This document shows, in pieces, positions 36,385 through 63,866 of a stretch of DNA of 64,000 nt. The DNA lies in NCBI GenBank assembly GCA_963666485.2, contig CAXXUO010000009.1:384001-448000 (forward strand), read 5' to 3'. The stretch comes from Syntrophorhabdaceae bacterium (GTDB lineage Bacteria > Desulfobacterota > Syntrophorhabdia > Syntrophorhabdales > Syntrophorhabdaceae). Position numbers and translations under genes: made by a program. Under the pieces are notes generated by a model, which was given only the letters and a program-made list of their open reading frames with translations, ran no database searches and had not been told where the DNA came from. Numbering within the stretch: position 1 is the first letter of the stretch; each line of letters opens with the position of its first letter.

Positions 36385-36400
36385 TGACAACAGTGCGGCA
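36385..36400 (-). promoter_or_regulatory. WYL-box copy upstream of the phosphatase
   Basis: Minus strand TGCCG-cactgt-TGTCA-N11-TATCAT (TG-extended -10). Confidence 0.65.
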
Positions 36401-36519
36401 TGCTCAATTAAAAACCCGTATTCCAGAATGTTCTCAACCGGCAAACTGGCTTCCGATTATAACGGCTGGTTTATTCCTTTATAAGGTATCTACCCATTCT
36501 TCGTTCACAACAATTTTGT

Positions 36520-36962
36520 CGCAATTACGTGAGGGCATATTGCCGGCTGAGGAAGGAATACCGGACCTTCGCTATTGACCGGATAGCCCTTCTCAAACCC
36601 CTCGACGACTTTTTTATGCCCATCCCGTATCGGCCGATGAGGACATGGCAGGCGCTTTTGGCGCGTACATTGATGGGGAACCTACGGATGTCACACTCGT
36701 TTTTGACGAAGAGATCCGCGCCCAGATCGGCAGGAAAAAATGGCACCCCAGCCAGAAACACAAAACACTCCCCGACGGCAGAATCGAAGTGTCGTTCACC
36801 GTAAACGGTTTTCAAGGCCTCAGGCACTGGATGTACCAGTGGATTCCCTATGTTGAAGTTATCCCCCCGGAGGAACTGAGGGTCATGCTGAAAGAGGACG
36901 CCGCGCGGGTTATTGCGAAAAATACCTCGGAGAACGGGCCAGCGGGACAGGCGGTAAAATAG
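36520..36962 (+). pseudogene. 5'-truncated, frameshifted WYL-WCX regulator paralog
   Basis: YVRAYCRLRKEYRTFAIDRI, then after a 1-nt loss near 36625 SADEDMAGAFG...WHPSQ...WMYQWIPYVEVIPPEELR; collinear with 38665-39591. Confidence 0.85.
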
Positions 36963-37000
36963 AAAACAAATGAGGGTAATGCAAGATTTAAAATCCAGAC

Positions 37001-37016
37001 TGCCATAACCCTGTCA
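37001..37016 (+). promoter_or_regulatory. WYL-box copy upstream of the DUF2779 gene
   Basis: TGCCA-taaccc-TGTCA; -10 at +11 is imperfect (TAATTA). Confidence 0.65.
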
Positions 37017-37070
37017 TGGAAGCGTCGTAATTAATAGTGAACCGGCAAGCCGACGGGTAAAGAGGAGACT

Positions 37071-38570
37071 ATGAGCCAGACAAACAATGATCCAATGTTG
37101 AGCAAGTCGAAATTCGTTCAGGGGCTGCAGTGCCACAAAGCGCTCTATTTGCAGATGCATAGCCCCGAACTTGCCGACCCGGTGCCGGCTTCCCGGGAGT
37201 CGCTTTTTCAGACCGGAAACGAGGTTGGCGCGCTGTCGCAAGGGCTCTTTCCGGGCGGCGTCATCATACCGTATGATGCGAATGATTACGAGGGCCAGAT
37301 TGTCCGGACAAAAGCGGAGATGGATAAAGGAACCGAGGTCCTGTATGAAGCAGCATTCAGTTATGACGGGGTGTTTGTCAAGGTGGACATCCTTCGTCTC
37401 GGCCGGGTCGGTTGGGAATTGTACGAGGTCAAGAGTTCGGCGTCCGTGCAGCCCTATCATGTCCCGGACATCGCCGTGCAGTATTACGTCCTCACCGGTG
37501 CGGGGGTAAATGTGTCGTCTGCACACCTCGTCCACATCAATACCGGGTATGTACGGAACGGCGCGATCGAACCGGAGAAGTTCTTCACCCTTGAGGATAT
37601 GACCGGCAAGGTGCAGGACATGGAGGCTTTCGTCAGGGACGAGATCGGGAAAATGAAAACAATGCTGAAAGGCGATATGCCCGTCATGGATATCGGGACA
37701 TATTGCACAAGTCCCTTTGACTGCAGTTTTTACGGCTATTGCTGGCAGCACATTCCGGAAGACTCCGTTTTCACCCTGCGGGACCGGGGTATCGACAAGT
37801 TCTCCCTGTACCGGAACGGGATCCTCCGGCTGCAGGATGTACCTCTCGATCTGCTCAATGCCCGACAGCGGCAGCAGGCAGAGCTGTTTCTCAGCAAGAA
37901 AGGATTCTTGGATAAAGGGGCCCTCAACGGTTTCCTGGAGACGATCCGGTACCCTATCCATTTCCTGGATTTTGAAACGGTCATGGCCGCCATTCCGCTG
38001 TATGACGGCACGTCCCCGTTTCAGCAGATCCCCTACCAGTACTCGATGCACTACCTGGAGCGTGAAGGGGGAGACCTAGGCCATTATGAATTCCTCGCCG
38101 AACCGAACGTCGATCCCCGCGAAGAGGTTGCGGCGAACCTGTGCAGACAAATCCCGGACAATTCGTGTGTGCTGGCCTATAATTCGCCTTTCGAAATTGG
38201 CATATTACACCGGCTCGGAAACGACTTCCCCCGCTATAAACAGAAGTTGGAGCGAATCATAGGCGGCACCATCGACCTCGCTGCCCCGTTCAGGTCGAGG
38301 CATGTATGCCACTGGAAGATGAACGGTTCATATTCTCAGAAAGTCGTTCTGCCGATCCTGGTACCCGGGCTCAGCTATAAGGGTATGGCTGTTGCCGACG
38401 GATCAATGGCCATGGACGCCTATTTCTCGATGTGCGCCGCCAAGGACCCTCATGAGATCGAGCTGATCCGGGCAAATCTCCTTGAATACTGCGCTCTCGA
38501 TACCCTGGGCATGGTCAGGATTCTGGAACGCCTGAAGACAATAGCCGAGACTGGGAAAATAACGGGATAG
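37071..38570 (+). CDS. DUF2779 protein: Cas4/RecB-like PD-(D/E)XK nuclease + RNase H-fold exonuclease
   Basis: LSKSKF..GLQC.K.LYL, KVDIL..ELYEVKS, C-x5-C-x5-C; FLDFET, AYN..FE, LEYC.LDT. Confidence 0.8.
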   Translation: MSQTNNDPMLSKSKFVQGLQCHKALYLQMHSPELADPVPASRESLFQTGNEVGALSQGLFPGGVIIPYDANDYEGQIVRTKAEMDKGTEVLYEAAFSYDGVFVKVDILRLGRVGWELYEVKSSASVQPYHVPDIAVQYYVLTGAGVNVSSAHLVHINTGYVRNGAIEPEKFFTLEDMTGKVQDMEAFVRDEIGKMKTMLKGDMPVMDIGTYCTSPFDCSFYGYCWQHIPEDSVFTLRDRGIDKFSLYRNGILRLQDVPLDLLNARQRQQAELFLSKKGFLDKGALNGFLETIRYPIHFLDFETVMAAIPLYDGTSPFQQIPYQYSMHYLEREGGDLGHYEFLAEPNVDPREEVAANLCRQIPDNSCVLAYNSPFEIGILHRLGNDFPRYKQKLERIIGGTIDLAAPFRSRHVCHWKMNGSYSQKVVLPILVPGLSYKGMAVADGSMAMDAYFSMCAAKDPHEIELIRANLLEYCALDTLGMVRILERLKTIAETGKITG

Positions 38571-38600: not shown

Positions 38601-38616
38601 TGACATATTCCTGTCA
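38601..38616 (+). promoter_or_regulatory. WYL-box copy upstream of the WYL regulator (autoregulatory site)
   Basis: aaTGACA-tattcc-TGTCAtt, 7-bp perfect arms. Confidence 0.75.
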
Positions 38617-38664
38617 TTATGCCATGATTTATTCTAATCACTCGCAAAAAAAAGGGGGGGCCTT

Positions 38665-39591
38665 ATGTCGTACAAGTTCGATTCACTGATCACCATCCTG
38701 AATAAGATAGACAGCAAAGAAAGAGTGACGGCTGACTCCCTTGCCGATGAGCTGGAGATAAGCAAGAGAACGGTCTACAGGTATATTACTACCTTGACGA
38801 CCGCCGGGTTTCCCATTGACTTTGATAAGACCAATAAGACCTACGTGTTTACCGACAATTATACGTTGAAAAAACCGCATCTGTCGGTGGAAGAGGCACT
38901 GGCGTTCCAGCTTGCGAAGAAATCGCTTTCCAATCTCGGTCCCGGCCTTGAAAAAGGCCTGTGTTGTATCGAAGAAAGGCTGGCCATGGGAAAGAAAACC
39001 GATCTCAGGCACATAATTTTTTCCGGCGAAAAGGTACCGGAGCATGTCGTGGAATATTTCAGGACCATTCACGGCGCCATCGTTGATTACCGGAAGATCA
39101 GGATAACCTATAAAGCCTTTGCCGCCCAAAAGGCTACGACAGGCACGGTTGACCCTTACTACCTGTTCTTCTCGAATGGCCTGTGGTATTTCAGGGGTTT
39201 ACAGCATGCGAACAAGGCGGTCCGTACCTTTGCTCTCGATCGGATAGAATCAATTTCTGTGCTCGATAAACATTTCCTGCCCACCACTCTTGCGCCCGAA
39301 AAGGAATTGTCCGGAGCCTTCGGGCCGTTTGTCGATGGTGCCCCGGTTGACGTGGTCTTGAGATTTGATAAAACGTATACGCCCCTGATCACGCGGAAAA
39401 CCTGGCATGCGAGCCAAAAGGTAGAGGACCTGACTGACGGGGGGATCGAGGTCACATTCACAGTGAAGGGTATACACGGTATACGAAACTGGGTACATCA
39501 GTGGATACCTCACGTGGAGGTCATCGCCCCGCAGGAACTGCGCGATATGTTCCGCAATGACCTGGGCGCCGCGTTGAAACAGAACAGTTGA
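38665..39591 (+). CDS. HTH-WYL-WCX transcriptional regulator (PafBC/DriD/YafY class)
   Basis: wHTH LADELEISKRTVYRYI..L...GFPI; WYL VDPYYLF...LWYF...VRTFALDRI; WCX WHASQ..WIPHVEVIAPQELR. Confidence 0.93.
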   Translation: MSYKFDSLITILNKIDSKERVTADSLADELEISKRTVYRYITTLTTAGFPIDFDKTNKTYVFTDNYTLKKPHLSVEEALAFQLAKKSLSNLGPGLEKGLCCIEERLAMGKKTDLRHIIFSGEKVPEHVVEYFRTIHGAIVDYRKIRITYKAFAAQKATTGTVDPYYLFFSNGLWYFRGLQHANKAVRTFALDRIESISVLDKHFLPTTLAPEKELSGAFGPFVDGAPVDVVLRFDKTYTPLITRKTWHASQKVEDLTDGGIEVTFTVKGIHGIRNWVHQWIPHVEVIAPQELRDMFRNDLGAALKQNS

Positions 39592-39733: not shown

Positions 39734-39766
39734 TGCCATAGTGCTGTCACAACCCGGGTTTATACT
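39734..39766 (+). promoter_or_regulatory. WYL-box + -10 upstream of the Zn-finger/ARPP-1 operon
   Basis: TGCCA-tagtgc-TGTCA-N11-TATACT. Confidence 0.75.
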
Positions 39767-39788: not shown

Positions 39789-39950
39789 ATGGGGAACAGG
39801 ACGGGAAAAGATCCCGGGGACGGGATTTGCTGTGATTGGTGCAAAATCGCTGAAGCGCTGGGGACATTTTTCGTCCCCGGGAAGGGTATCCTCAACCTCT
39901 GCGGGCGCTGCAGATTGCTGCTCATGGCGGTCCTCATAGATGAGATGTAA
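39789..39950 (+). CDS. Small Cys-rich (CxxC..CxxC) protein, 53 aa
   Basis: CCDWC...CGRC; AAGGGGG RBS; stop abuts the RBS of the next gene. Confidence 0.6.
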   Translation: MGNRTGKDPGDGICCDWCKIAEALGTFFVPGKGILNLCGRCRLLLMAVLIDEM

Positions 39951-39959: not shown

Positions 39960-40952
39960 ATGGAAAAGGTGATAGCTGACTTTATCGGTACGATCAATTT
40001 CGGAGAAGCAAAAACGCATCGGAACATGACCGTGATCCCTCTCTTCACGGATTCCAATCACGTGCCGGCTTTCCTGACACTCCGCAGGGCGTTGGAAGCG
40101 GGCCACCTCGTGATCACGGAGATCAGTGCAAGCGGGTCGGTGCCGGAGCTCCTGGCGAAAAATACGGGCGATCTGCCCATCCTGCTTCTTGACGGGGAAG
40201 AGCTTGCCGGCGCAAAGCAGAACAGGGTCCTCAACACGACGATATTGCTTCAGGAGAAGTCGGAAACGGTCATCCCCGTCAGCTGCACGGAGCATGGGCG
40301 GTGGTCGTACAGGGGCGCCCACTTCGATGATTCTGACGTGATAATGGCCAAGAAGGCGCGAGAGAACAAGGCGAGGACCGTGTCGTATTCTCTTCGGGAC
40401 CAGAAGTCGTACCGGTCAGACCAGGGGAAGGTCTGGGAAGACATAGCCGCATTGTCGGTCAAGCACGGCATTCGTTCGGAAACGGGGGCCATGCGGGATG
40501 TCTACGAATCCCGGAAGGTCTCCCTCGATGAATACATCGAGGCATTCCCTGTGCAGGACGGGCAGAAGGGGCTTTTTACCTTAATCGACGGCAAGATCGT
40601 CGGGTTCGACATCATCGCGTCCGCCGCCGGATATGCCGATCTGCATGGCAAACTTATCAAAAGCTACGCCATGGACGAACTGGCGTCCGGCGGGAAAGGG
40701 AACAATGGGGAAGACGCCCGGAAAAAAGCCAGGGAATTCTTCGAGATGCTCCTTTCGTCACGGGAAGAAAAATATAAATCGATAGGGTACGGCATCGATT
40801 ACCGTTTCGAGAATGGAATCGCGGTAGGCTCGGCCCTTGTCAGTTCCGAAAAAGTGATACACATGGCAGTCTTCAGGTCCACCCAGTCGGACAGGACGGG
40901 AAATATGTCGGGACCGGCGCAGAGGCGGGCCAACAGGTCGAGGGCCTTATAA
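39960..40952 (+). CDS. ARPP-1 (DUF6569-like; ARG- and phosphatase-associated) protein
   Basis: LTL..AL..G...ITE....GSVPEL...N..D.PILLLDGEEL.GAKQNRVLN.TIL...IPVSCTEHGRW, SDQG.VW. Confidence 0.8.
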   Translation: MEKVIADFIGTINFGEAKTHRNMTVIPLFTDSNHVPAFLTLRRALEAGHLVITEISASGSVPELLAKNTGDLPILLLDGEELAGAKQNRVLNTTILLQEKSETVIPVSCTEHGRWSYRGAHFDDSDVIMAKKARENKARTVSYSLRDQKSYRSDQGKVWEDIAALSVKHGIRSETGAMRDVYESRKVSLDEYIEAFPVQDGQKGLFTLIDGKIVGFDIIASAAGYADLHGKLIKSYAMDELASGGKGNNGEDARKKAREFFEMLLSSREEKYKSIGYGIDYRFENGIAVGSALVSSEKVIHMAVFRSTQSDRTGNMSGPAQRRANRSRAL

Positions 40953-41043: not shown

Positions 41044-43512
41044 TCATCCGGGGACATCTTTCATTTTCGCGATCCGTCCTTCAATTGCTGACGGCTGGCG
41101 CTGAAAGATGACGGATAATGTTTTGATATCGCCGGTCTCTTTATGGAGCCTGAAAAGCAGGTCGTCTTCTTCCCTGCTCCATGGCTCAAATGCCCTTTTA
41201 TATGTCAACCTGATCTTCTGAATCTCCGGGTCAAGCGTGTCATCATTCAGTATTACCATCGGAAGGCTGCTTATCTCATCTATGGCATCCCGCGTTGTTT
41301 CAGGAGACAGGACCCTGTCTATCACCGGCGTATCGGACTCCGTCTCGCTATTCACCATTACTCCGGAACTGTCGCTACTAACCTCAGATCCCTGACCATG
41401 TTCGTATGTTTTCATGGTGACGTGGGCCTTGTAAGCCCAGACGGTAGGCGGAGATACCCCGACTGTTTCAGCGATCTGGCTGGAATTTAATCTACCTTCT
41501 GCCAGCAGTCGCAATATCTCGGACTTCTTATCCTCTTTTGAATTGCAATCCAAATCAGTTCGTGAAGCAAGTACCGCTTTGCCTATGATTAACCCGGCTT
41601 GCCCGCCTGGCACATTCTCTTTCTTTTCGATATTGTGCGTTTTCTTGTACTCTCTTACGATCTCAAGGAACATCTCCCCGTACTGCTCCAGTCTTTTGGC
41701 CCCCACACCATAAATGCCTTGCATCTCATCGATCGAGTCGGGCAGCACGGTCGCCAATTCTTCCAGGGTGCGGTTATGAAAAATGACATAAGCCGGGAGA
41801 GAGTTCTTTTGGGCCAATTCCAGCCTGAATGATTTCAACTGCTCGAGGAGTTCCGCGTGGCACTCTCCCTGTACAAGCCTGGCGCCCGCATCACGATCGG
41901 GAGGTTTTGATTTTGCCATATTCTGCTTCACCGGGATAAGGGGGTCCTTGCGCAGCAGGAATTGTTCATCCCCCGACAGGATCGGTTTACATTTCCCTGT
42001 CAGTTTCAAGCCGCCATGGTTGGCCATATCTACCCTGAGAAACCTGTTGGCAACCAGCTGCCTGAATACCGACTTCCACTCGAATGCCGACAATTCTTTT
42101 CCGGTGCCGTAGACTGTTAGCGTATTGTGCCTGAAGTTCCTGATCCGCTCCGTGTCTTTCCCGAGAAGCACGTCGATAAGGTAGTTGGTGCCGAACATCT
42201 GGCCCGTCCTGTACGCGCATGTCAGCGCTTTCCTCGCGATGGCCGTCCCGTCGACGGTTTCCGTGCCGTTCATGCATATATCGCAATTGCCGCACGGCTC
42301 ATGCAGCGTTTCACCGAAATATGCCAGGAGCACCTCCCTCCTGCAATGGCCGCTTTCGCAATAACCGAGCATGGCTTCCATTTTTCTGTATTGGATCCGT
42401 TTAAACTCCTCGCTTCCCTGGGAGTCATCTATCATTTGCTGGAGCATGACGATATCCGCCATGTCGTATACCATCCACGCGTCGGCAGGCTCACCGTCGC
42501 GCCCGGCCCGGCCCGTCTCCTGGTAATAATTCTCGAGCGTTTTTGGAAGGTTCAGGTGCGCCACGAACCGTATGTCCGGCTTGTTGATCCCCATGCCGAA
42601 GGCTATTGTCGCGACCATGACGATCCCGTCGTTCCGCAGGAAACGCTCCTGGTTCTGCACACGGGCATCCCGCGTCAAACCGGCATGGTACGGGAAGGCG
42701 GTTATATCGTTGTCTCTCAGGAATTCAGCGATCTCCTCCGTCTTCTTACGCGTCATGCAGTACACGATGCCGGACTGCCCGGGATGTTCATTCTTCAGGA
42801 AATTCAACAACTGGACCTTTTCCTTGTTCTTCACCTCCACCCTGTACGTAATGTTCGGGCGGTCCAGCCCTGAAATGAAATGTTTGGCATCTTGAAAATG
42901 GAGTTTTTCAATGATGTCCCGGCGGGTGAATTCATCCGCCGTTGCCGTCAGGGCAATGCGGGGGATGTCCGGAAAAAGTTCGTACAGTTCACCGAGCCGG
43001 AGATATTCCGGCCTGAAGTCGTGGCCCCATTGCGACACGCAGTGGACCTCGTCTATGGCGAAGAGAGATATCTTCATATTTTTCAGTAAATTCAGGAACG
43101 GCCCGGTCATGAGCCTTTCCGGGGCAACATAGAGAAGGTCAAGGTCCCCGTTGATCGCTGCCCGTTGAATAGCATACGCTTCGTTGCCGGCCAGCATTGA
43201 ATTCAGGAAACCCGCCCGTATCCCCAGCTGCGTGACCGCGTCGACCTGGTCCTGCATGAGGGCGATCAACGGCGAGATCACGATGCATGTCCCCGGGGAC
43301 ATCAAGGCCGGGACCTGGTAGCAGATCGATTTGCCGCTTCCCGTGGGCATCAGCGCAAAAACGTCCCGGCCGGACATCAGGGATTGGATTATGTCTTCCT
43401 GGTACGACCGAAAAGCATCGTACCCGAAGTATTTTCTCAAAATAGTGAGGGGCAGAAGATTATCGCTTTGCATATCCATAAAGATCCGGAACCGGCCGTC
43501 CTTTCCCGTCAT
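41044..43512 (-). CDS. recQ: DNA helicase RecQ with HRDC and extra C-terminal HTH modules
   Basis: MPTGSGKS, DEVHCVSQWGHDFRPEY, QETGRAGRDG, CRR..CGNCDIC, HRDC PAYVIFHNRTL. Confidence 0.95.
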   Translation of the reverse strand: MTGKDGRFRIFMDMQSDNLLPLTILRKYFGYDAFRSYQEDIIQSLMSGRDVFALMPTGSGKSICYQVPALMSPGTCIVISPLIALMQDQVDAVTQLGIRAGFLNSMLAGNEAYAIQRAAINGDLDLLYVAPERLMTGPFLNLLKNMKISLFAIDEVHCVSQWGHDFRPEYLRLGELYELFPDIPRIALTATADEFTRRDIIEKLHFQDAKHFISGLDRPNITYRVEVKNKEKVQLLNFLKNEHPGQSGIVYCMTRKKTEEIAEFLRDNDITAFPYHAGLTRDARVQNQERFLRNDGIVMVATIAFGMGINKPDIRFVAHLNLPKTLENYYQETGRAGRDGEPADAWMVYDMADIVMLQQMIDDSQGSEEFKRIQYRKMEAMLGYCESGHCRREVLLAYFGETLHEPCGNCDICMNGTETVDGTAIARKALTCAYRTGQMFGTNYLIDVLLGKDTERIRNFRHNTLTVYGTGKELSAFEWKSVFRQLVANRFLRVDMANHGGLKLTGKCKPILSGDEQFLLRKDPLIPVKQNMAKSKPPDRDAGARLVQGECHAELLEQLKSFRLELAQKNSLPAYVIFHNRTLEELATVLPDSIDEMQGIYGVGAKRLEQYGEMFLEIVREYKKTHNIEKKENVPGGQAGLIIGKAVLASRTDLDCNSKEDKKSEILRLLAEGRLNSSQIAETVGVSPPTVWAYKAHVTMKTYEHGQGSEVSSDSSGVMVNSETESDTPVIDRVLSPETTRDAIDEISSLPMVILNDDTLDPEIQKIRLTYKRAFEPWSREEDDLLFRLHKETGDIKTLSVIFQRQPSAIEGRIAKMKDVPG

Positions 43513-43655
43513 GTACGGTAATTTGTAAGAAAGATGGATTTACTTTTCCTAATCTACGCATAACGACGGAACTTTCGCAAGAAAACTGAATATGAATTTT
43601 GTTCGTTCGCAATGAATTAATTTCGGCCACCCAAGCAGGCGGCGTGGTTTCCCCG

Positions 43656-45503
43656 TTACGTCTTTGATGACTGCAAGGCTTTTGACAGGCTGCGGATCAG
43701 CGGCGTCTCTTTCATGTAGGGAATAAACAGGTTGTACCGCGCCCGGGTGAGGCCGACATATGTCAGGTTCCTGATATGTTCAGCCGCCATTTTTTGTTCG
43801 GTTAATTGATCGAGCCCGACGAGAAATACACAGGCATAGTCGAGGCCTTTCGCGCTGTAGATCGTCGATATGGTCACACTGTTGGTGGTGATGTCATACG
43901 ATCTCTTTGACCTGTAATCTTCAGAGGCCCACTCAGACATTATTCCCCGCATATCGAGCGCGCCGGTCAATTCGTGTACCAGGTTCGTGTCCCGGCCGTC
44001 CAATGTTACATTTTTGGAAACATAGAGAATGGCGATCTCGGAAAATGAAAAGCCCTCCTTCATCGTAAGCGATTCAATTTTATTGGCGATGTAGGTTATT
44101 AAATCGGAAGGGCCTTTGAGCTTTTTTATAACGGGTTTTGGCCCATGGGATTCAAGCAGATCAGGCGCGAAAAGCATTTCCGGGGTATTTTCACAAATCA
44201 CCGGTTCTGCGCAATCCATCATGAACGACCTGACAAATTCGGTGATCTCCTTCGTGTTGCGATATACCGCGGTCAGATTCCTGACTTTGCCCAGCTTGAG
44301 AATGCCGGCGCCCTTGTTCCGGTAGATGATCTGTGACGGGTCTATTGCGATCGTCAGGCTGTCGGTAGCCGGGTTGAGAAGGCCCAGAAGGACCCTGTAC
44401 ATGTCTTCGTTGAAATCCTGACCTTCGTCTACCAGGATCGCATCGTATTTCAGGCTCGTTTCCGGTATCTTGTCAAGCGTCAACTGAACGACCGTATCGT
44501 AATAATCCGACTCCTCTTTTTCATAATGGACCGTTTCTCCGGTTATCCTGGCGCACAATTCAAAGAAGTGGTACACCTCTACGCCCTGAGGGCCCATGGA
44601 GACATGTTTCTCTGCGAGAAGCCTTTTTATGTAATGTGCCAGCGTGATGTTGAAGCAAACAAAAAGGATCGACTTTATGGCCGGGTTATACTTCTTCAGG
44701 AAGACCGCCTTATGGATCAGGACGAGCGTCTTGCCGCTGCCGGACGGGCCGGATATGATGCGGTGTCCCGGGTCAAACTGGCGGGCAAGCGTCTCCTGAC
44801 GGTGGTCCAGCATGGCAACGTATTCGACATGTTTCTGATATTTCTCCGAAGGCCCCCGGAACGGCAGAACGATCTTTACCGATGGGAAAATAAGGTATTT
44901 GAGATGTTCGATATCGGCCGCGGTCAGGGACACGTGAAATATCGGGGTGAACATCCGGGCGATGGCGCTGGTAAATTCAGTGCCCGATGTGTCCTCGCAT
45001 ATCGGGGAATATGTGCTCAGGTCGCCTTCGAAAAATATCTTGTTTGACGATATTACCCCGCGAAGCTTTTCTTCAAAATCATCTCTGAAAATATTCGGAA
45101 AGACGACCCCGCGGTCCAAAGGGATTTTTGGCTTTCCGGAATATTCCGGATCGGCCGATACAAGCCTCCTGTCACCTTTGATCTTATCCATCAAGCTATT
45201 GATGTACCGTTTTGCCTGTTTGTAGGGATTGGTCCTTTTTTCAACGTGGTTGCCATTGACGATGCTGAAATGTTCCGAATCCGCCCCTTCGATCTGGTCT
45301 ATAACCCAGTCTTTCACTTCGAAAATTATCAGACCTACATCCGGGGAAAAAAGGATGAAATCCGGCTCGTTGTCATTTATCTCGGGAGTATACCAAACAA
45401 TGTAGCGACTGTCGGGCTTGGCATATAATCGAAGAAAATTATAGAAAGTCTCTTCGCCCGGCGTGTTGAACTGCTCAATATCGGAGGGGATCATAAGCGC
45501 CAT
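43656..45503 (-). CDS. NERD nuclease + UvrD-like SF1 helicase
   Basis: EPDFILF...IFEVKDW, NPYKQA; GPSGSGKT, VDEGQDF, TIYSAKGLD, YVGLTRAR. Confidence 0.85.
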   Translation of the reverse strand: MALMIPSDIEQFNTPGEETFYNFLRLYAKPDSRYIVWYTPEINDNEPDFILFSPDVGLIIFEVKDWVIDQIEGADSEHFSIVNGNHVEKRTNPYKQAKRYINSLMDKIKGDRRLVSADPEYSGKPKIPLDRGVVFPNIFRDDFEEKLRGVISSNKIFFEGDLSTYSPICEDTSGTEFTSAIARMFTPIFHVSLTAADIEHLKYLIFPSVKIVLPFRGPSEKYQKHVEYVAMLDHRQETLARQFDPGHRIISGPSGSGKTLVLIHKAVFLKKYNPAIKSILFVCFNITLAHYIKRLLAEKHVSMGPQGVEVYHFFELCARITGETVHYEKEESDYYDTVVQLTLDKIPETSLKYDAILVDEGQDFNEDMYRVLLGLLNPATDSLTIAIDPSQIIYRNKGAGILKLGKVRNLTAVYRNTKEITEFVRSFMMDCAEPVICENTPEMLFAPDLLESHGPKPVIKKLKGPSDLITYIANKIESLTMKEGFSFSEIAILYVSKNVTLDGRDTNLVHELTGALDMRGIMSEWASEDYRSKRSYDITTNSVTISTIYSAKGLDYACVFLVGLDQLTEQKMAAEHIRNLTYVGLTRARYNLFIPYMKETPLIRSLSKALQSSKT

Positions 45504-45521
45504 GAAATAGCCTCGCTATTT

Positions 45522-48500
45522 TTATTGTGCCCTGTATATCGTCAAATCACAACTGTTTCCGCCACGCAGGAAATTCAAAGTAATTTCGGTCTTTTCTCCG
45601 CGGCGGGTGCAGAAATCGAGGAGCGCGTGCATGTGTTCCAGGCCTTTCACCGCCTCCGGGTTCTGGAGGACGTCGAATGAAGGTTCGAGAAGGGGGCGGG
45701 GGAGGAAGACGATGCATTTTGACCGGGCGCGGCTCACGGACACGTTGATGCGGTTGAGGCTGTAAATGAACTCCGCCTCGCCCAGCGCCGTCTCGACATC
45801 GCTCACCCCGTAGCTGACAATGACGCAGTAGCTTTGCTGTCCCTGCATCTTATCCACGGTATCGACGAAGGACGGGCTTTCCCATCGCCGGGCCAGGGAG
45901 AGTTCATGCCGGATAGCGCGGATCTGCGCGTGGTGGGGACTGACGATGAAGAGCCCCCTGCGCCAGAATTCGGTGTCGCCGTCCCGGGTATCAGCATAGG
46001 CAGTGCCCGTATCGGGATTTATGAGACGCTCGCGAAGGTATTGAGTTATTTTGGCGACGAGCTCGGCCTCCGCCTGGTTCTCGACCGTCGCCCGGATACC
46101 CTCGAGGATGCACAGTGTCATGGGGTATTCGGGGGCAGTGATCCATTCGCAGAGTTTTTTCTCGTCGGGAGTTAAACCTCGTACGGGTTTATCACGCAAC
46201 GCCGCGCGCTGCACTTTTATGGACCCGGTGGCAGGCTGATACTCCGGGCCGTACAGTGTTTCGGCCGGGAAATCCGAGAGCGTCTGGTTCATGCGCCAGT
46301 TATCGGTCAATTGCTGCGTATACGGCTTCTCCCCGTCGTCGCGCGCGCGAAGATAGGCGAAGATCGAGCTGTCAAGGCCCGGCAGCCCGTCTTCCGGTTC
46401 GGGGTAGACGCCTTTCATGATGGGCGGCAGCTGGAGGTCGTCGCCGGCAAGGACCAGCTTTCCTCGCGGGGCAAGGACCTTCAGTGCCATAGCCAGCTCG
46501 CCGAACTTCATCTGTGATGCCTCGTCGACGACGAGCAGAGGGAAATCCCCCGTGATCTTCGTCTTGAACAGGCTGTATACGGTCCCGCCGATGACGCACA
46601 CATCGCTTGAAATGTCTGCCGCCTGGACCTCGGGAATGGAGTCGATATCTTCAGCCCGTGAGGTCGCGATGTGTTTCAGCTTGAAGATATCCGGGCCGCC
46701 TTCGATACCGAAGAGGGCCGCGTGGTCGCGGATCTCGACAAGCAGGTTCTCGACCGCCGCGTGCGTGAACGCGGTCACCGCTGCCCGAAAGGGCTTCCCG
46801 CTGTCTTGCGCAGCCTTTGCCATGCTGAGGACCGCCTTGGCGAGAAAATGCGTCTTGCCCGTGCCGGGAGGGCCCCAGATAAGTGTAAGCCTGTTCTTCA
46901 GCACATGGTTGAACGCCGATTCCTGGCTCCGGGTGAAGCCGGCGGCGGACCCGGCAACCCTCAGCGAGCGTACGGCATTGTCGCTGAGAAGGGATGTTTC
47001 ATGCGCAAATTGGTGCGGCGTCCTGATGAGCGAAAGGAAATCCCTGTCACCCGAGCGGTCCAATTCGCCGAGGTTGCCGATTATCCTGTCGACATTGGCA
47101 TCCGTGAACCGCGGATGCAGAACGGCCTCGTGGCCGCGCTCAAGCCGGGAATGCCTTTTGGACTCTTTGAGATCGAGGGAAAGATGGGTGACCTTGCCCG
47201 TCTGCGGATCGATCTGACGCCCTGTTATCCGGGCGAGCCGGACATTGTCGTCGGCGGGCGACCAAAAAGCCTTTCTGTGCCTGTAATCGTCGTATCCCAT
47301 CTGGGAGCGTTCCCCATTTCGTCCCGCGGGGACGAGAATGAACGAGAAGAAGTCACCGGCCTCCTCGATAACGCTGGCATCGAGGTCCGACTCCACCTGC
47401 CAGCTGTCAAAACCCTGTTTCTTGAGCGGTATGCTTGTCCCTTCCCTGACCCTTTCCGGCCATGGCAGCCCGCGCTGCTCACGGACATCGAGGGCGCCAA
47501 GGAGTGATTCATACCGCGCTATGAACGCGAGGCGGGACAACTCCGGGTTCACGAAATCAAGCGGGTCGGGGAATTTGAACTTCGTCGGCCACGCCAGCAG
47601 GCAATCCTGCACCTTTTCCCTCAAACCGTCAAGGACGAGCCCCGTTGCGTACAGGCGACGCGAGATCTCGCTCCGTATCCAGTCGAGGGCCTCCAGCCTG
47701 TTCTTCGTCCATGCGAGGAATATCGGGTCGCTCTTGAGGACGTTGCTGAGCTCGAACCAGAACATCTTGTTCGGCTCCAGCGTGTAATCGGACGCCGAAG
47801 GCGGGAGGACCTTGAGGACGTCGGGCAGGCGAAGTGACAGAGGCACGGGAAGCGCCAGAAGCTGGCGGATGACGCTTGTCATCACGATAACGGGGAAAGG
47901 GACATCATCCCTCGGATGCTCGTCGGCCTCCGCAAGTGTGGTGTCCTGAAAATGGAACAGGAGCTGGACAGCTATCTCGGACAGCTCCGGATCGGTTAAC
48001 GATTCCTTCAGCAGCCGGTTGAACAGGCTCAGTTCATAGGTGTCAAAGACATAGCTCTGCATCGACTTCTGCCCGGCCCAATCGTCTTTGCCCTCATTGT
48101 ATGCGTGGAGCACGGAAAGCTCGCGGAAAAGCGCCTTGAGGAAATCTTTACGGACGGAATCGCAATCGTCCGGTCTTTTCGCCAGGAATATCTCCTCATG
48201 CATCCCGTCACCAAAGATGTCCTTGCCCTTCAGCCTCCTGAATGCCGCCGCATAGACCCTTCCGGTGACCGGGTCTTCCTGGATGGTCATAAAGATCGCC
48301 ACATTTTCCATGACGGGCAATGACACGGTAAAACCGCCGTGACACAACACCTCCCCGTTCTTCAGAGCGGAAACGGCGTTCCGCAAGCGGTCCCCTTTCG
48401 ACCTCAACGAGCCGCAGGCATCGAGGCACGCATCGGACGCATCCTCTTTGAGGAAATCCTCGAGATCGTCGAGCGTGTTTATCGGCTCCGTCCCGCCCCA

Positions 48501-49312
48501 GGGCACCTCCCGGAGGTATGTCCTGCCCCCGATCGACAGGTACGGGATGAGCGAGATCGACCCCTTCTCGTCCGCCTCTTTTCTGCAATGCTCATAAAAC
48601 TCACACCACTCACACCGGAAGAAGAGGTGCCAGGACAGCTCATCGATCGGCGCCGTCAGGACCTTTCCGAGCTTTTCCCGGAGGAAATCCTCGATGGTGA
48701 GAAGACTGAACCTGAGGTCAAACCATTCCGGTTCCGGGTCACCATAAAGCCAGACCCCGCCGGTCCCGAGATCGAGGGGCAGATCGAGCCCGTTTGCCCG
48801 GGCAACATCCCGCAGTATGAGCGTGTAGGTGGCGACCTGGATCCGGTGGGATACCTTGAGCTCGGTGCTCGCCTTGATATCGATGACCTTCAGACGTGCA
48901 TCCCCGTTGTCCCCATGCATCTGGACCAGGTCCGGCCGGCAGGGCGGGAACTCGCAGAGATCGGACGCAATGCCGTAGCGTTTCAGAAAGATGTCCGGGA
49001 TCTGGAGGGTCGGCTGGTAAATTGCCTCCCCCGGCCTCAATGCGGGCAGGATGGCGAGAGTCTCGCCGACATCGTGAGCCCTCTCATGGACCTTCCCTTT
49101 TCCCCTCGCGACCCTTACCCGGTCCTTCAGCCTTTTCTCGATTATCTCCCTTTCCCAGGTGAACCCGCCCTCAAGTATCGCGGCCCTGACCGGGCTCGTA
49201 TCCCACGGGATGTCGGGCACCCCGTCCGCTTTCCTGCGGTCCTTCGGGGTGGCGTGATACCGCAAGTACCTTTCGCATTCGTGGTAAAAATACCGGGCTA
49301 TTCTCGACGGGC

Positions 49313-49331
<19 letters not shown>
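45522..49331 (-). CDS. Cas4/RecB-like Fe-S nuclease + degenerate RNase H + DNA2/Upf1-type SF1B helicase
   Basis: ECERYL, RPDLV..VIDIK, Q...Y, CEWCEFYEHC; WGPPGTGKT, VDEASQ, GDDLQLPP, TVDKMQGQ, NRINVSVSRAR. Confidence 0.85.
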
Positions 49332-52063
<2,732 letters not shown>

Positions 52064-52295: not shown

Positions 52296-52763
52296 TTACG
52301 ACACCTGCGCCGTCGGCATCACCTCGACAATGCCGTCTTCCGCGTAAAAATCGAACTCGGAAGACTTCCTCATTTCGTCATGGTCTCTGTGTATGTCGTC
52401 CATGAAGATACCGAAGGCCCTTTTTTCGTAGGAGGCCGCAAATACCGCGCACATGTTCAGGTTCGGCCTTTCCCCGTCGACATTCGTGTAGAAGGCGCTG
52501 ACAAGGGACCTTCTGCTGAAATCGTTGATTATTTTCAGATAATCAGAAGCATAGTTCACAGCATTTTGCCCCATGCAATATGCGATCGAAACGCCGACCC
52601 CGACGAACCTTTTGAAGACCCAGAGTGACGGCCTGTGGTGGTGAGTTGCATAGAGGCCATGTTCGTCATCCTCACTGCCCGTATACCTGACCTCATAGCC
52701 CAGGTATTCGAGGTGCGCCAAAAAATACTGAAATTCGTTCCCCTTCTCGTCCTTTTTCGCCAT
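52296..52763 (-). CDS. Hypothetical protein, possible YbjN / type III chaperone fold
   Basis: 155 aa alpha/beta pattern (LEYLGY, LKIINDF, F..FM.D); G-rich RBS. Confidence 0.55.
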   Translation of the reverse strand: MAKKDEKGNEFQYFLAHLEYLGYEVRYTGSEDDEHGLYATHHHRPSLWVFKRFVGVGVSIAYCMGQNAVNYASDYLKIINDFSRRSLVSAFYTNVDGERPNLNMCAVFAASYEKRAFGIFMDDIHRDHDEMRKSSEFDFYAEDGIVEVMPTAQVS

Positions 52764-52793: not shown

Positions 52794-52826
52794 ATACTAT
52801 CACCGGCCGATGACAACACCATGTCA
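52794..52826 (-). promoter_or_regulatory. WYL-box + extended -10 upstream of the YbjN-like/helicase run
   Basis: Minus strand TGACA-tggtgt-TGTCA-N11-TAGTAT with TG extension. Confidence 0.75.
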
Positions 52827-59232: not shown

Positions 59233-59265
59233 TCCAGGCTGCACGGAGAGAGTAAGATAGTGAAA

Positions 59266-59400: not shown

Positions 59401-59503
59401 TGAGCGAACTTGGGCCGGTCTTTTGTTGCACTGCATATGCTTATGTCGATACAAAAGGGAACCTGGTATTTTTACCTCAGTAAGATAGCCGGAGAGTGGA
59501 AGG

Positions 59504-59668: not shown

Positions 59669-59790
59669 TCCCCTCATCATTCCGGAATATGACATTTTGG
59701 GCTCATGTTCTTATCTTTGAATATGAGATGCATCTTCCCGTTCCCGGAAACGTCTTGTTGAAATTTGCGTCAAACTATCCCGCGCCAAGA

Positions 59791-59823
59791 TGACAAGCAT
59801 ATGTCACCTCGCACTGCTAAAAT
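59791..59823 (+). promoter_or_regulatory. WYL-box + extended -10 upstream of the ADP-ribosylglycohydrolase
   Basis: TGACA-agcata-TGTCA-N11-TAAAAT with TG extension. Confidence 0.75.
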
Positions 59824-59879
59824 TATATAACGGTACAATTTACGGTGCAGAATAATAAAATAAACTGGGAGAATTGTGT

Positions 59880-60647
59880 ATGATCGGTGCAATTGCAGGT
59901 GATATCATCGGCTCGGTGTACGAGTGGCATAACCTCAAAACGATCGATTTCCCTCTCTTTGATCCACTCTGCACTTTCACCGACGACACCGTCCTCACCA
60001 TTGCCATCGCCGACGCGATCCTGTCCGGCACTGATTACGGCCCCAGGCTCAAGGAATGGTATCGTCTGTACCCGGACCGGGGTTACGGTTCCGGCTTTCG
60101 CCGCTGGGCCAGAAGTCACAGTCGTCAGGGCGACAGCATGGGCAACGGCTCTGCCATGCGCGTGAGCCCCGTCGGCTTCGCCTTCAACACGCTGGAAGAC
60201 GTGCTGGAAGAAGCTCGAAAAAGCGCCCTCCCGAGCCACAACCACCCCGAGGGCATCAAGGGCGCGCAATCCGTCGCCTCCGCCATCTTCCTCGCCCGCA
60301 CGGGAACCGGCAAGGAAGATATCAAGAAATACATTCAGGAGACATTCGGCTACAACCTTAACCGTACCCTCGAAGACATCCGCCCCCGCTACCGCTTCGA
60401 CGCCACCTGCCCCGGTTCCGTCCCCGAGGCAATAACCGCATTCCTCGAATCAAACGATTTCGAAGACGCTATTCGCAAAGCGATCTCCCTCGGCGGCGAT
60501 TCCGACACGATCGCATGCATTGCCGGCGGCATCGCCGAGGCGTTTTACGGCATTCCCGACTACATTCGTATCCGGACGCTGGAGGAACTTGACGATACGT
60601 TGCTGAGTACCGTGGACTCCTTCACCAAAGAATACTGTTCTGCATAA
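59880..60647 (+). CDS. ADP-ribosylglycohydrolase (ARH/DraG family)
   Basis: GAIAGDIIGS.YE, FTDDT, GNGSAMRVSP, SHNHPEG, GGDSDTIACIAG. Confidence 0.93.
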   Translation: MIGAIAGDIIGSVYEWHNLKTIDFPLFDPLCTFTDDTVLTIAIADAILSGTDYGPRLKEWYRLYPDRGYGSGFRRWARSHSRQGDSMGNGSAMRVSPVGFAFNTLEDVLEEARKSALPSHNHPEGIKGAQSVASAIFLARTGTGKEDIKKYIQETFGYNLNRTLEDIRPRYRFDATCPGSVPEAITAFLESNDFEDAIRKAISLGGDSDTIACIAGGIAEAFYGIPDYIRIRTLEELDDTLLSTVDSFTKEYCSA

Positions 60648-60724
60648 AAAAAATCTTTTGCGGTGATGAAAACGTGTCATCATGGGTCCGGTGGCAAACC
60701 CTGCCTCCAAAGAACTCTTTGATA

Positions 60725-60747
60725 ATGATATCATTTGGTGATACCAT
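60725..60747. promoter_or_regulatory. Inverted repeat upstream of hicB (candidate HicB operator)
   Basis: ATGATATCA-tttgg-TGATACCAT. Confidence 0.55.
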
Positions 60748-60756
60748 GTTCCCATT

Positions 60757-61089
60757 ATGATGACATATAAAGGATATACCGCAAAAGTCGAATTTGACGA
60801 CGAGGACATGATATTTCACGGCGAGGTGATCGGGATCCGGGATGTTGTCACATTTGAAGGCGACAGCGTGAAGGAGATCGAAAAAGCTTTCCGCGACTCC
60901 GTCGACGACTACCTGAACATGTGCAAAGAAAGGAACGAGGCCCCGGACAAGCCCTTTTCCGGTAAATTCGTTGTGAGACTCTCCCCCGAGATCCACCGGA
61001 AAATACATGCATCAGCCAAAAAAGCAGGCCTCAGCGTCAACGCGTGGCTCAATGTGAAATTACGAAATCTGTTGAACGATCGTTGTTAA
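60757..61089 (+). CDS. hicB: HicB family antitoxin
   Basis: YKGYTA.VEFD.ED.IFHG.VIGIRDVVTFEG.SV.E...AF..SVDDYL..C; SGKF.VRL.PE.H RHH domain. Confidence 0.9.
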   Translation: MMTYKGYTAKVEFDDEDMIFHGEVIGIRDVVTFEGDSVKEIEKAFRDSVDDYLNMCKERNEAPDKPFSGKFVVRLSPEIHRKIHASAKKAGLSVNAWLNVKLRNLLNDRC

Positions 61090-61393: not shown

Positions 61394-61598
61394 AACACTG
61401 CCTCCTGAGAATTGGATTGTCATCATCTATGACAGAATTATACCACTTCAGCCGTCAGGAGGATCACCTGATATTTTTTGGACGAGATTTCGGCGGGTGA
61501 ATCGATGGTCTGATGCTGAAGAATCATTCTTTATTTTCTTTCTTACTGGTGATACATTCGTTTTACAAGAAGGACAGTACAGGCAAGGAGAAGAAGTT

Positions 61599-62660
61599 AT
61601 GGTGCACAGGATTGCGGTCATTCCCGGCGATGGTATTGGAAAGGAAGTTGTTCCCGAGGGAATTCGGGTTCTCGACGCCGCGGGAGAACGATTTAATATA
61701 AGGTTTCAATGGGAATTCTTTCCCTGGGGATGCGAATATTATTCATTACACGGGAATATGATGCCGTCCGACGGGCTGGCCACACTGAAAAAATTCGAGG
61801 CGATCTATCTTGGCGCCGTCGGTGCACCCGGGGTGCCGGACCATATCTCGCTGTGGGGTTTACTGATCCCCATACGCACAAACTTCCGGCAGTACGTCAA
61901 TTTAAGGCCGGTGAGGCTGCTTGAGGGTCTGCAAAGTCCTCTCAAAAACAAGAGGCCTGGTGATATCGATCTGTGCATCGTGCGTGAAAATAATGAGGGC
62001 GAATATTCCCGGGTCGGCGGGAGGATGTATGAAGGGGCCGACCGGGAAATGGCTATACAAATTTCGATCTTCACGAGGGAAGGTGTTGAAAGGGTGATAC
62101 GGTTCGCTTTTGAACTCGCGAAGAGAAGACCAAAAAAACATCTCACATCTGCCACGAAATCAAACGGGCTCATTCACACCATGCCTTTCTGGGACGAGAT
62201 ATTCCGGGAAATTTCACAGGATTACCCGGAAGTAAGAGCTGACCAGTTCCACATAGATGCGCTGGCCGCCGCCCTCGTCCTCCGCCCTGAGAATTTCGAC
62301 GTCCTCGTGGGAAGCAACCTTTTCGGAGATATCCTCTCAGACCTTGCTCCGGCCCTTGCAGGGGGCCTCGGTATCGCCCCGTCGGCGAATCTCAATCCCG
62401 AGCATGAATTTCCCTCCATGTTTGAGCCCGTTCATGGCTCCGCACCTGATATCGCCGGAAAAGGCACTGCGAATCCCATTGGGCAGATATGGTCCGGTGC
62501 AATGATGCTCGACCATCTCGGTCATAGCGATGCCGCTCAGGCAATAGAAGAAGCCATAGAAAGAGCACTGTTGGAAGAGAAGACCCGGACACCCGATCTT
62601 AACGGAAGCGCATCCACTCAGGAAGTAGGCATAGCAATCAGGGATTATGTCATGAGATAG
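61599..62660 (+). CDS. Tartrate dehydrogenase / D-malate dehydrogenase (decarboxylating)
   Basis: IPGDGIGKEV, VPDHISLWGLL, RENNEGEYS, SATKSNG, MFEPVHGSAPDIAG. Confidence 0.9.
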   Translation: MVHRIAVIPGDGIGKEVVPEGIRVLDAAGERFNIRFQWEFFPWGCEYYSLHGNMMPSDGLATLKKFEAIYLGAVGAPGVPDHISLWGLLIPIRTNFRQYVNLRPVRLLEGLQSPLKNKRPGDIDLCIVRENNEGEYSRVGGRMYEGADREMAIQISIFTREGVERVIRFAFELAKRRPKKHLTSATKSNGLIHTMPFWDEIFREISQDYPEVRADQFHIDALAAALVLRPENFDVLVGSNLFGDILSDLAPALAGGLGIAPSANLNPEHEFPSMFEPVHGSAPDIAGKGTANPIGQIWSGAMMLDHLGHSDAAQAIEEAIERALLEEKTRTPDLNGSASTQEVGIAIRDYVMR

Positions 62661-62734
62661 ACTGGCTTCTCCCGAAAAAAAACGGGACACATCCGGGCCA
62701 AATTCGATTGGAAGAACGACTGGTTCCCGAGGGA

Positions 62735-63730
62735 TCATTCACCAGTTTTATGGCTGGCGACAACCTTCTTATAAAATCTTTCCGCCTTTGCCGGGTTTAT
62801 TCGTTTTAATTCATGATAGGCATTCATGACTTTTTCTTCCCGGCCGGCTATTTTATATACAACTCCCAGGTCGAACCAGGCATCCGCATAATCCGGATCG
62901 AGTTCGACACATTTTTCGTAGCTTGCGGCGGCTTTATTCGTTTCCTGCAAGGTCATATACGCAAACCCCAGGTTAAACCAGGCCTTTTTATCACCCGGGT
63001 AAAGGTCCAATGATTTCCTCAAATACACGATGCCTTTGCCCGTTTCGCCCGCAATTGCATATATCGTTCCCAGGGAATGCCAGGCAGCGGCATTTTTCGG
63101 TTCCACCATCGTCCAAACCTGGCAATACGCTATTATTCCCTGGATATCATTCTGCGCTTCGAGATTAGCCAATTCTGCCCGCCGATCTTCTGAAATGAAG
63201 GAACCACCCTGTTGTCCTTTCTCCACGGCCCGCTTCCCGCCATCGGATGACGTTCCCTTGGGAATTTCCAGGTCTGCAGGTAAACATACCTCGCTTGCCA
63301 GCCGTTCAATAAATGTGTTCGGAGGAATCGGCCTGAATCCAAATCCACCGCGTTTTTTGTTTTTATCCCCGGTACTAACATCATTAAAATTGGCATCCCG
63401 GAAAACAATTTCGACCTGGTTGTATTCCCATTTCCTGCAGTCGATTTTCTCACGGGATTGATAATGCGTGGCCCGCGGTGATCCGGGAAGGCTTTCGGCC
63501 ATAACTACCATCATTTCCGTGGACAAAATATGGCGGGTTTTAACCGAAATTATTCCCTTCCCTTCGTGCACGACGGAAAGCCTGTCATATACCAGCGTTC
63601 CGGTCCTATTTTCTCCCACCTCGACCCATTCCGGGTTCGGAGCTTCCCGGCAGAAACCGAATACAGCCACACATATGCACAGCACAATAGTTCCCACAAT
63701 GATCGCAATTCCTGGATTGAAGCGACTCAT
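62735..63730 (-). CDS. Membrane-anchored/exported protein with adhesin-E-like N-domain and C-terminal TPRs
   Basis: N-terminal TM; W..V...YD..S...IDC...IPP.T..E.LA..VC; TPRs (AWHSLG, AWFNLG, AWFDLG). Confidence 0.7.
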   Translation of the reverse strand: MSRFNPGIAIIVGTIVLCICVAVFGFCREAPNPEWVEVGENRTGTLVYDRLSVVHEGKGIISVKTRHILSTEMMVVMAESLPGSPRATHYQSREKIDCRKWEYNQVEIVFRDANFNDVSTGDKNKKRGGFGFRPIPPNTFIERLASEVCLPADLEIPKGTSSDGGKRAVEKGQQGGSFISEDRRAELANLEAQNDIQGIIAYCQVWTMVEPKNAAAWHSLGTIYAIAGETGKGIVYLRKSLDLYPGDKKAWFNLGFAYMTLQETNKAAASYEKCVELDPDYADAWFDLGVVYKIAGREEKVMNAYHELKRINPAKAERFYKKVVASHKTGE

Positions 63731-63833
63731 ATCGGTGTCTCCTTTGCTTTTATATACACCCAGTGCACTGACGAATAGAGATTGGCGGCGGTGATGAAGC
63801 GTAATCGCCGGAGGAACCCCGCAATAACGAAAA

Positions 63834-63866
63834 ATTATATCGCACTAAGGTGACATCATCATGGCA
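63834..63866 (-). promoter_or_regulatory. WYL-box + perfect -10 upstream of the TPR gene
   Basis: Minus strand TGCCA-tgatga-TGTCA-N11-TATAAT. Confidence 0.75.

Follow-up and report, generated by a model that had tools for sequence, protein, structure and literature searches.

A palindromic box 11 bp ahead of the -10 element as the probable operator of a DriD-like WYL protein and its candidate defence-type regulon in Syntrophorhabdaceae

A 64,000-nucleotide stretch of a Syntrophorhabdaceae genome (assembly GCA_963666485.2, contig CAXXUO010000009.1, positions 384,001 to 448,000; hereafter the window) carries seven copies of a 16-bp palindrome, TG(A/C)C(A/G)-N6-TGTCA, each oriented to the gene downstream. 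This box is probably the operator of the winged helix-turn-helix (wHTH) WYL-WCX transcription factor encoded in the same stretch, which would activate a defence-type regulon in the style of DriD, with single-stranded DNA (ssDNA) as its likely signal. In the mechanism we propose, a homodimer of the WYL protein would bind TG(A/C)CA-N6-TGTCA over a missing -35, sense a nucleic-acid-type stress signal, likely ssDNA, and recruit RNA polymerase to a -10 element lying 11 bp downstream. The output would be a scattered stress and defence regulon apart from SOS, with a predicted core of an ADP-ribosylglycohydrolase (ARG), cysteine and calcineurin-like phosphatases, ARPP-1, a YbjN-like chaperone and nucleases, together a putative ADP-ribose clean-up set. 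Relatives would add some type I CRISPR-Cas and type I restriction-modification (R-M) operons. At the WYL gene's own promoter an additional basal element is usual, in the form of a TG extension or of another -10 lying five bases further upstream, and it would let the sensor be made ahead of induction. Positions outside the window are given with G000 for the source genome, in which the window is G000:C9:384001-448000.

The whole window held just these seven matches to the pattern, every one intergenic, at the sites and in the orientations that the original prediction had given (Table 1). TAnnnT stood 11 bp past TGTCA in five of the seven and TG lay one base ahead of it in three of these five, whereas the best agreement with a -35 at 16-18 bp was 2 or 3 of 6 in all seven; the promoter geometry described earlier was thus confirmed, as was the copy ahead of the WYL gene itself. 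Seven sites compare with 0.43 expected per 64 kb (Poisson 4e-7, for a pattern picked after the fact), and a first-order Markov simulation of the window (n = 100) gave a mean of 0.35 and a maximum of 2. The 3.77-Mb genome contained 32 such sites, with at most two in each of the remaining 53 of its 54 tiles of 64 kb, and within the window each alternative spacer (N2-N5 and N7-N12) gave 0-3 sites. Over the whole genome, N6 without regard to the -10 was not enriched (32 sites versus 17-65 for other spacers), so the signal lies in the clustering and in the -10 spacing. TAnnnT at 11 bp followed 15 of 146 oriented genome sites with at most one mismatch, against a background of 0.0085, and a smaller peak was seen at 13 bp (10 of 146). 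With a scoring matrix built on 181 sites from other genomes, six of the seven window boxes exceeded the top control score of 16.9. The box at 37001 was the weakest of the seven and fell within the control range; at the equivalent place in a relative (record L138) there is a perfect box with TAATTG. Rfam gave no match within the window.

We further examined the conservation of the box and its spacing. A WYL homologue was present in 53 of the 96 genomes of the order, and close homologues came from sources named Syntrophorhabdus or Syntrophorhabdaceae. Within the genus (20 genomes), the combination of box and spaced -10 occurred 91 times, spread over 18 genomes, versus 10 in the reversed control; across the order, the stricter form TG(A/C)CA-N6-TGTCA-N11-TAnnnT (the strict site) gave 184 matches in 64 of the 96 genomes versus 12 in the control. 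Of the 52 genomes that encode a WYL homologue, 38 had at least two strict sites, compared to 4 of 43 without one, and the same contrast held inside the family (36 of 45 versus 4 of 23). In loci picked by the protein alone (70 loci, 823 kb, after 4 short fragment loci of 74 were excluded), the N6 form gave 49 sites compared to 1-11 for N3-5 and N7-9, including 6 for N5, and 37 of the 49 had TAnnnT at 11 bp. The left half-site was the more variable half (TGACA, TGCCA, CGACA or TGTCA). The box lay within 110 nt upstream of 52 of 85 distinct WYL starts (24-100% identity, including Nitrospirota, Geobacter and Bacillota; a lenient match without a chance rate), and most ARPP-1 genes carried it as well. 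In a second WYL clade, of 28-36% identity and with the same R-[TS]-x-x-R helix, the box was mostly just 3' of the gene. These conservation and co-occurrence statistics are overstated, because kin are not independent, own-promoter boxes were counted in the co-occurrence, and some protein-picked loci are the same DNA as the relatives' loci. The co-occurrence of the box with the WYL gene is support, not proof.

It is highly improbable that the boxes arose by chance or survive merely as remnants of promoter duplications. Clear duplicates do occur (G000:C2:650646 and C2:653638; C3:225475 and the WYL promoter) and the lack of genome-wide enrichment fits chance, but among the seven boxes the flanks and the letters of the 11-bp spacer vary with half-sites and spacing constant, and the box is conserved ahead of unrelated genes in those 64 genomes of the order. 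The counts in the genus, the order and the protein-picked loci largely refute this explanation. A regulon spanning the phylum was considered and rejected, with matches in only 17 of the 401 genomes searched under a stricter -10, eight of them in the own order counting the source genome and the rest scattered single sites. Viral contigs gave 32 pattern stretches, mostly AT-rich, which we estimated to be near chance, an estimate made without a control. Prophage-like records of 25% GC (L107, also L114, L115, L122, L123, L134 and L137) contain pairs of boxes followed by N11 and TATAAT, 809 bp apart at L107:1501-1533 and 2310-2342, facing a region without long open reading frames beside an integrase; four viral loci gave no Rfam match. 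Whether through true identity with the box or through coincidence in AT-rich DNA, either origin of these sites is possible.

Alternatively, the box could be read by a different factor, a Crp/Fnr-family protein or an alternative sigma factor, with the WYL gene as just one of its targets. CooA-type Crp-family boxes use identical pentamers, but in the opposite half-site order, TGTCA-N6-TGACA. At least one strict site was present in 15 of 43 genomes without a detected WYL homologue, as another reader would predict; multi-site genomes, however, are nearly all WYL-positive, the box tracks WYL genes into the Nitrospirota, Geobacter and Bacillota records, and the conserved arginine pair of the WYL protein suits GTC readout. 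We regard a different reader as very unlikely.

Promoter anatomy was determined on the distinct strict sites, 183 in number. Where the -10 pattern leaves the base open, the letters leaned to TATAAT (complete in 42 of 183), a purine stood 7 nt past the hexamer in 72%, a TG extension was present in 62, and a -35 of 4/6 or better occurred at 6 sites versus about 23 expected from the flanks. Activation is favoured over repression because the box overlies the absent -35 at one fixed distance from the -10; if the WYL protein binds, we consider activation highly likely. The opposite view would make it a repressor of the BrxR/CapW type, with extended -10 promoters that fire unaided and a ligand such as ADP-ribose that releases the dimer. 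The WYL factors of ARG-centric systems have been called negative regulators in a proposal without experiments (PMC9503650, section 3.8). The box also overlaps polymerase territory, a third of the sites have the TG extension, and in the WYL promoter of this genome the left half-site doubles as a -35, a repressing layout. Yet repression would work at various spacings, whereas 37 of the 49 protein-picked sites keep a single one, and 88 of 125 target sites lack the TG extension, with nearly all lacking a -35. The strong sigma-70 promoter that lies under BrxR and CapW operators was thus scarcely seen at the strict sites, with a possible exception at the WYL gene's own promoter. Moreover, the protein has an activator-type three-helix bundle (3HB), and its matches to CapW and BrxR are poorer than those to DriD and PafBC. 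Repression as the general mode is therefore unlikely in our estimate.

The WYL genes' own promoters differed from those of the targets. The 11-bp -10 was present in 40 of 52 of them, and 24 of these 40, versus 2 of 65 targets, had another TAnnnT placed five bases further upstream, at 17 bp from the left half-site if that is read as a -35. Among the 40, 18 had the upstream TA alone, 12 the TG extension alone, 6 both and 4 neither, compared to 45 of 125 targets with either; since the WYL promoters are homologous, this contrast does not consist of independent events. We infer that the extra element is a basal one that keeps the sensor present. Negative autoregulation has been suggested for DriD (PMC9186387). 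Autorepression as a general rule, prompted by the WYL promoter of this genome, was dropped, given the 11-bp -10 in 40 of the 52 homologous promoters, and at its own gene the protein may either repress or activate. In three genomes (L341, L345 and L347), TGTCA serves as the left half in a direct-repeat form with the same 11-bp spacing, ahead of ARG.

The predicted model of the WYL protein comprised a wHTH, a helical bundle at residues 75-140, WYL and WCX (pLDDT 79.9). Foldseek ranked DriD first (E 1.8e-16), followed by PafBC (9.7e-14), CapW (4.3e-10) and BrxR (2.1e-9). In the profile search the top E-value went to the PafBC two-domain fusion (8.3e-24); DriD aligned over positions 73-306 including the three-helix bundle, and CapW and BrxR over the WYL domain only. 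R35 and R39 were invariant in 120 of 120 homologues and match the spacing of DriD R37/R41 and PafB R46/R50, the arginines that read GTC (PafB, PMC8635444), a register set by motif reading and not by a printed alignment. The genome contained one intact HTH-WYL-WCX gene, the other WYL matches being two remnants and a helicase-WYL fusion without an HTH, and no PafC-like partner gene was found in the genome. A homodimer is likely because a single intact gene meets a palindromic site, and it is the simplest predicted binder. We consider it very likely that the protein encoded at 38665 binds the box. One of the remnants, a 5' HTH stub at G000:C3:225248-225490, is 90% identical to the WYL gene with the same promoter and box retained. 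The fusion, a PIF1/RecD-like helicase with a C-terminal WYL at G000:C9:14689-16251, lies about 3 kb from a second ARG gene.

The PafBC resemblance raised a further possibility, sigma adaptation, in which the downstream half-site alone is read as a -26 element and a second HTH holds sigma domain 4. The spacing to the -10 equals that of the PafBC consensus tGTCgg(N10)tA(N3)T (PMC8635444), as originally noted, variation is greater in the left half-site, and PafBC has the best profile E-value. A mechanism with one half-site has no need of a left half-site, however, and this half is kept at N6 only; the PafC-like partner is missing and the fold search favours DriD. Sigma adaptation is accordingly judged a decidedly unlikely account of these promoters. 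The earlier proposal of a homodimeric WYL activator stood in that the box tracks the WYL gene, the geometry is that of an activator and a single intact gene is present, but its closer precedent is DriD and DdaA rather than PafBC.

The ligand was approached through the ssDNA contacts of DriD. By alignment mapping, Y168, Y192 and R204 of DriD have counterparts in Y149, Y175 and R187, and W206 and Y240 are conservatively replaced by F189 and F222. Y149, R187 and F189 are conserved among the WYL homologues. An extra R177 is invariant in them and may compensate for missing contact arginines: R178, R189, R207 and R288 of DriD lack counterparts, the R207 position being Ala in 113 of 120 homologues and the R178 position Arg in 0 of the 41 closest. 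DriD R207A is impaired and R176A-R178A is dead (PMC9186387). As DdaA also lacks one such arginine and is damage-responsive, ssDNA stays the likeliest ligand by analogy, with real doubt and less safely than for DriD. A more speculative variant, to which we give a low probability, is a WYL activator that has lost its ssDNA contacts and senses a product of infection such as ADP-ribose or ADP-ribosylated nucleic acid, governing a genome-wide immune regulon wholly apart from SOS. If this were true, the regulon would join ADP-ribose clean-up to CRISPR, R-M, TIR, KptA, ARPP-1, DUF2779, a 60-aa protein and beta-flower proteins, the WYL gene would have a two-position promoter, and the box would be a search tool for new defence genes.

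Comparison with known systems placed the WYL protein closest to DriD of Caulobacter crescentus, a homodimeric WYL activator (PMC13004042, PMC10853764, PMC9186387). Shared are the wHTH-3HB-WYL-WCX order, the best fold match, the arginine pair of the recognition helix, a site at the own gene, and a palindrome that takes the place of the -35 and keeps its distance to the -10. In DriD promoters too, the site covers the position of the absent -35 with constant spacing to the -10 (PMC13004042), and by our own count its promoter oligonucleotide has TGTCG 11 nt ahead of the hexamer that an engineered -35 sets at 17 bp. Identity is about 24%, the site is TGACA-N6-TGTCA versus CGAC-N7-GTCG, with T for the outer C of DriD and a centre that is not AT-rich, an aromatic residue replaces Glu40, the R178 and R207 counterparts are missing as described, and the targets here are defence-type whereas those of DriD are recA, recJ, dnaG and didA. 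DdaA of Moraxellaceae is likewise a WYL activator, and its targets are genes for DNA repair, CRISPR-Cas and R-M (PMC12392091, PMC13010146). It has a WYL activator palindrome (CGWCA-N5-TGWCG) ahead of cas and R-M operons and, as here, one sensing arginine replaced by Ala; DdaA, however, replaces SOS and controls recA, uvrA and ssb, whereas here recA carried a strict box in 0 of 17 upstream regions of 1.5 kb and lexA is present. Thus neither the 15-bp site GAC-N7-GTC of DriD and DdaA nor their control of recA was found, the N6 form being dominant. With PafBC and SiwR of mycobacteria the boxes share a GTC at about -26 read by two arginines, a canonical -10 and no -35, but PafBC is a heterodimer at a non-palindromic site, and this genome has one intact HTH-WYL gene. 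SiwR controls one operon through a GGA triplet (PMC8635444, PMC10693628). BrxR (BREX) and CapW (CBASS) are WYL factors beside defence genes, as here, but are repressors with a weaker match. The MbpR motif YAATGGTGCCA (PMC11880434) is not this palindrome.

Contrary to what had been supposed, the gene set itself has a precedent. Iyer et al. (2022) predicted ARG-centric counter-ADP-ribosylation systems that would remove phage-made ADP-ribose, and suggested that a WYL or Nudix factor represses them until ADP-ribose releases it (PMC9503650, section 3.8); these neighbourhoods hold nearly the cast found here: ARG, rhodanese-phosphatase and calcineurin-like phosphatases, a TY/YbjN-like chaperone (here a lead), ARPP, helicase-linked nucleases, a WYL factor and a WYL-ARPP gene pair. 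Theirs are gene neighbourhoods under a repressor, with no operator given in that section; here the genes form separate transcription units that share a single box, placed as for an activator, and CRISPR, R-M and other genes join them. No ADP-ribosyltransferase or sirtuin was found among 40 window proteins scanned of 206 open reading frames, a scan that did not extend to the rest of the genome. The genes likely fit the ARG-centric set, and the promoter layout argues against the repressor sign proposed for its WYL factor.

We further investigated which genes follow the box in relatives. Homologues starting within 1.5 kb downstream of 193 distinct oriented sites were WYL (25), ARPP-1 (25), a 60-aa protein (24), phosphatase (11), DUF2779 (10), ERCC4-type nuclease (10), ARG (8) and YbjN-like (5), the YbjN-like 155-aa protein being the first gene behind the box at five further sites. 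From the gene side (strict box within 1.5 kb upstream; 3 ARPP-1 fragments and 1 ARG fragment excluded), 19 of 23 full-length ARPP-1 genes were boxed. Five of 8 testable cas3-containing operons of the genus had a box, and three hsdM genes (type I R-M) in two genomes lay behind one. The source genome gave no Cas3_HD or N6_Mtase match in the family search, so the link to CRISPR and type I R-M rests on relatives; recA and lexA are both present there, neither with a box, and a replacement of SOS was rejected. Also boxed in relatives were SNF2 helicases, a Mre11/Rad50-like pair, DUF932 with an HD protein, a SLOG protein, and KptA, TIR and Fic proteins, and at three Bacillota loci the WYL gene was followed by cas6. 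Other sites, which may be fortuitous, lie ahead of housekeeping genes or have no evident gene behind them. The 60-aa protein is acidic (net charge about -4 to -13 across 23 members), unannotated, and commonly directly behind the WYL gene, with a small secreted beta-flower protein encoded next. It could be assigned to no family or clear fold (Atlas below 0.9; best viral Foldseek E 0.3, with a DpnD/PcfM-like protein at rank 2; best VIA-align Z 4.0).

Several observations weigh against an activating WYL operator with ssDNA as its signal. Two of the seven boxes lack a spaced -10, among them the WYL gene's own copy, which reads TTTATT at the 11-bp position. No strict site was present in 4 of 52 WYL-positive genomes, 33 of 85 WYL starts had no box, and the unenriched bare pattern, the strict sites of WYL-negative genomes and the dependence among kin count in the same direction. 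ARG was poorly covered, with a strict box at 5 of 27 matches; this genome has three ARG genes, of which one is boxed, and two high-ranking matrix sites (24.1 and 21.1) are probably unrelated. The centre of the site is one base longer than in DriD and DdaA. WYL activator sites are also not always placed as here: the DriD site at recA lies 17 nt above the -35 (PMC9186387), and those of DdaA are found some 50 bp upstream of the start, whereas the box here ends 11 bp before the -10. The missing contact arginines weigh on the ligand in particular.

Table 1. Boxes, promoters and genes of the candidate regulon (window positions unless prefixed G000)
Feature	Position	Strand	Details
Rhodanese-phosphatase (DSP/PTP-like) phosphatase, CX5R intact	35825..36322	-	Pfam PF22785 E 2.6e-16, PF22784
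Predicted phosphatase promoter: box 36385-36400, 11 bp, TATCAT, TG extension	36368..36400	-	matrix 22.6
Broken 3' WYL-WCX remnant, no HTH	36520..36962	+	47% identical to residues 204-308
Box ahead of DUF2779 gene, TAATTA at 11 bp, no -7 T	37001..37016	+	matrix 14.3
DUF2779 protein with Cas4-like nuclease domain	37071..38570	+	PF11074 E 3.9e-41, PF01930 E 9e-5
Perfect box ahead of WYL gene (box from 38601); overlapping ATGACA-17 bp-CATGAT with TG extension, predicted basal promoter	38601..38628	+	
wHTH-3HB-WYL-WCX transcription factor, predicted box binder	38665..39591	+	PF08279, PF13280, PF25583
Box, 11 bp, TATACT, ahead of zinc finger/ARPP-1	39734..39766	+	matrix 32.7
53-aa CxxC...CxxC predicted zinc finger	39789..39950	+	kept behind boxes in relatives; no Pfam or NCBIfam match
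ARPP-1 protein	39960..40952	+	PF20208 E 1.4e-96
Helicase-nuclease run	41044..52063	-	UvrD-PDDEXK 49313-52063, SF1 helicase 45522-49358, NERD-UvrD 43656-45503, RecQ 41044-43512
155-aa protein, likely YbjN/TY-chaperone fold	52296..52763	-	no Pfam match
Perfect box 52811-52826, 11 bp, TAGTAT, TG extension	52794..52826	-	matrix 30.8
Perfect box, 11 bp, TAAAAT, TG extension, ahead of ARG	59791..59823	+	matrix 24.1
ADP-ribosylglycohydrolase (ARG)	59874..60647	+	PF03747 E 5.1e-39
TPR protein, hydrophobic N-terminus, possibly exported	62735..63730	-	TPR Pfams, weak PF16747
Box 63851-63866, 11 bp, TATAAT, ahead of TPR gene	63834..63866	-	matrix 31.5
Box ahead of 60-aa acidic protein and secreted beta-flower protein	G000:C1:539936		
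60-aa and beta-flower genes	G000:C1:539936-540425		L046:1554-1733, 1748-1990
Box ahead of calcineurin-like phosphoesterase and zinc-finger ERCC4-type nuclease	G000:C1:1412302		
Box ahead of phosphatase unit	G000:C2:650646		
Box at disrupted duplicate	G000:C2:653638		
Box ahead of 5' stub of second WYL gene	G000:C3:225475		
Box ahead of phosphatase unit	G000:C9:83722		
Box ahead of phosphatase unit	G000:C9:458686	-	

The regulon is not confined to the 27 kb first proposed, as at least six further sites lie in the genome outside the window. One of these (G000:C9:458686) is the eighth box of the island, about 11 kb past the window end and ahead of a phosphatase-like gene. It is followed, in G000:C9:448000-497516, by macro-domain-like, DUF4007-like and large ATPase genes, named from reading the translations, and a box-like site at C9:489121 has a spacing of 12 bp. 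The assignment of the 155-aa protein is a lead, from an Atlas score of 0.92 to clusters in which 21-24% of the members carry YbjN. Of this gene and the helicase-nuclease run, earlier proposed to be co-induced, the former has a box directly ahead. Membership of the run is uncertain because it is separated from the boxed gene by 233 bp that may hold an independent promoter, and a helicase followed the boxed YbjN-like orthologue in 2 of 5 cases. The boxed ARG is flanked by a ParE/Phd toxin-antitoxin pair and a HicB-like gene (58575-61089). Elsewhere in the window, a cytochrome c552 (NrfA-like) gene at 53036-54293 is spread over two overlapping frames, a frameshift or an assembly error, and a type II secretion cluster adjoins an RHS-repeat protein with an SpvB-like N-terminus (19295-34692).

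The WYL protein is not a new kind of regulator, as WYL activation of CRISPR and R-M is already known from DdaA. What is new is the operator, its likely activating sign and a wider regulon that takes in ARPP-1, cas, type I R-M and the 60-aa acidic protein; neither the operator nor the regulon was found in the open-access literature searched. The predicted ARG-centric systems thereby gain a probable operator for their WYL factors, and the published guess that they are repressors is now directly testable. The DriD-like layout would be common to a third lineage, with a 16-bp site, and the results suggest a defence-only counterpart of DdaA beside LexA. Together, the motif ties scattered unannotated genes to one another and makes them guilt-by-regulation candidates for anti-phage function.

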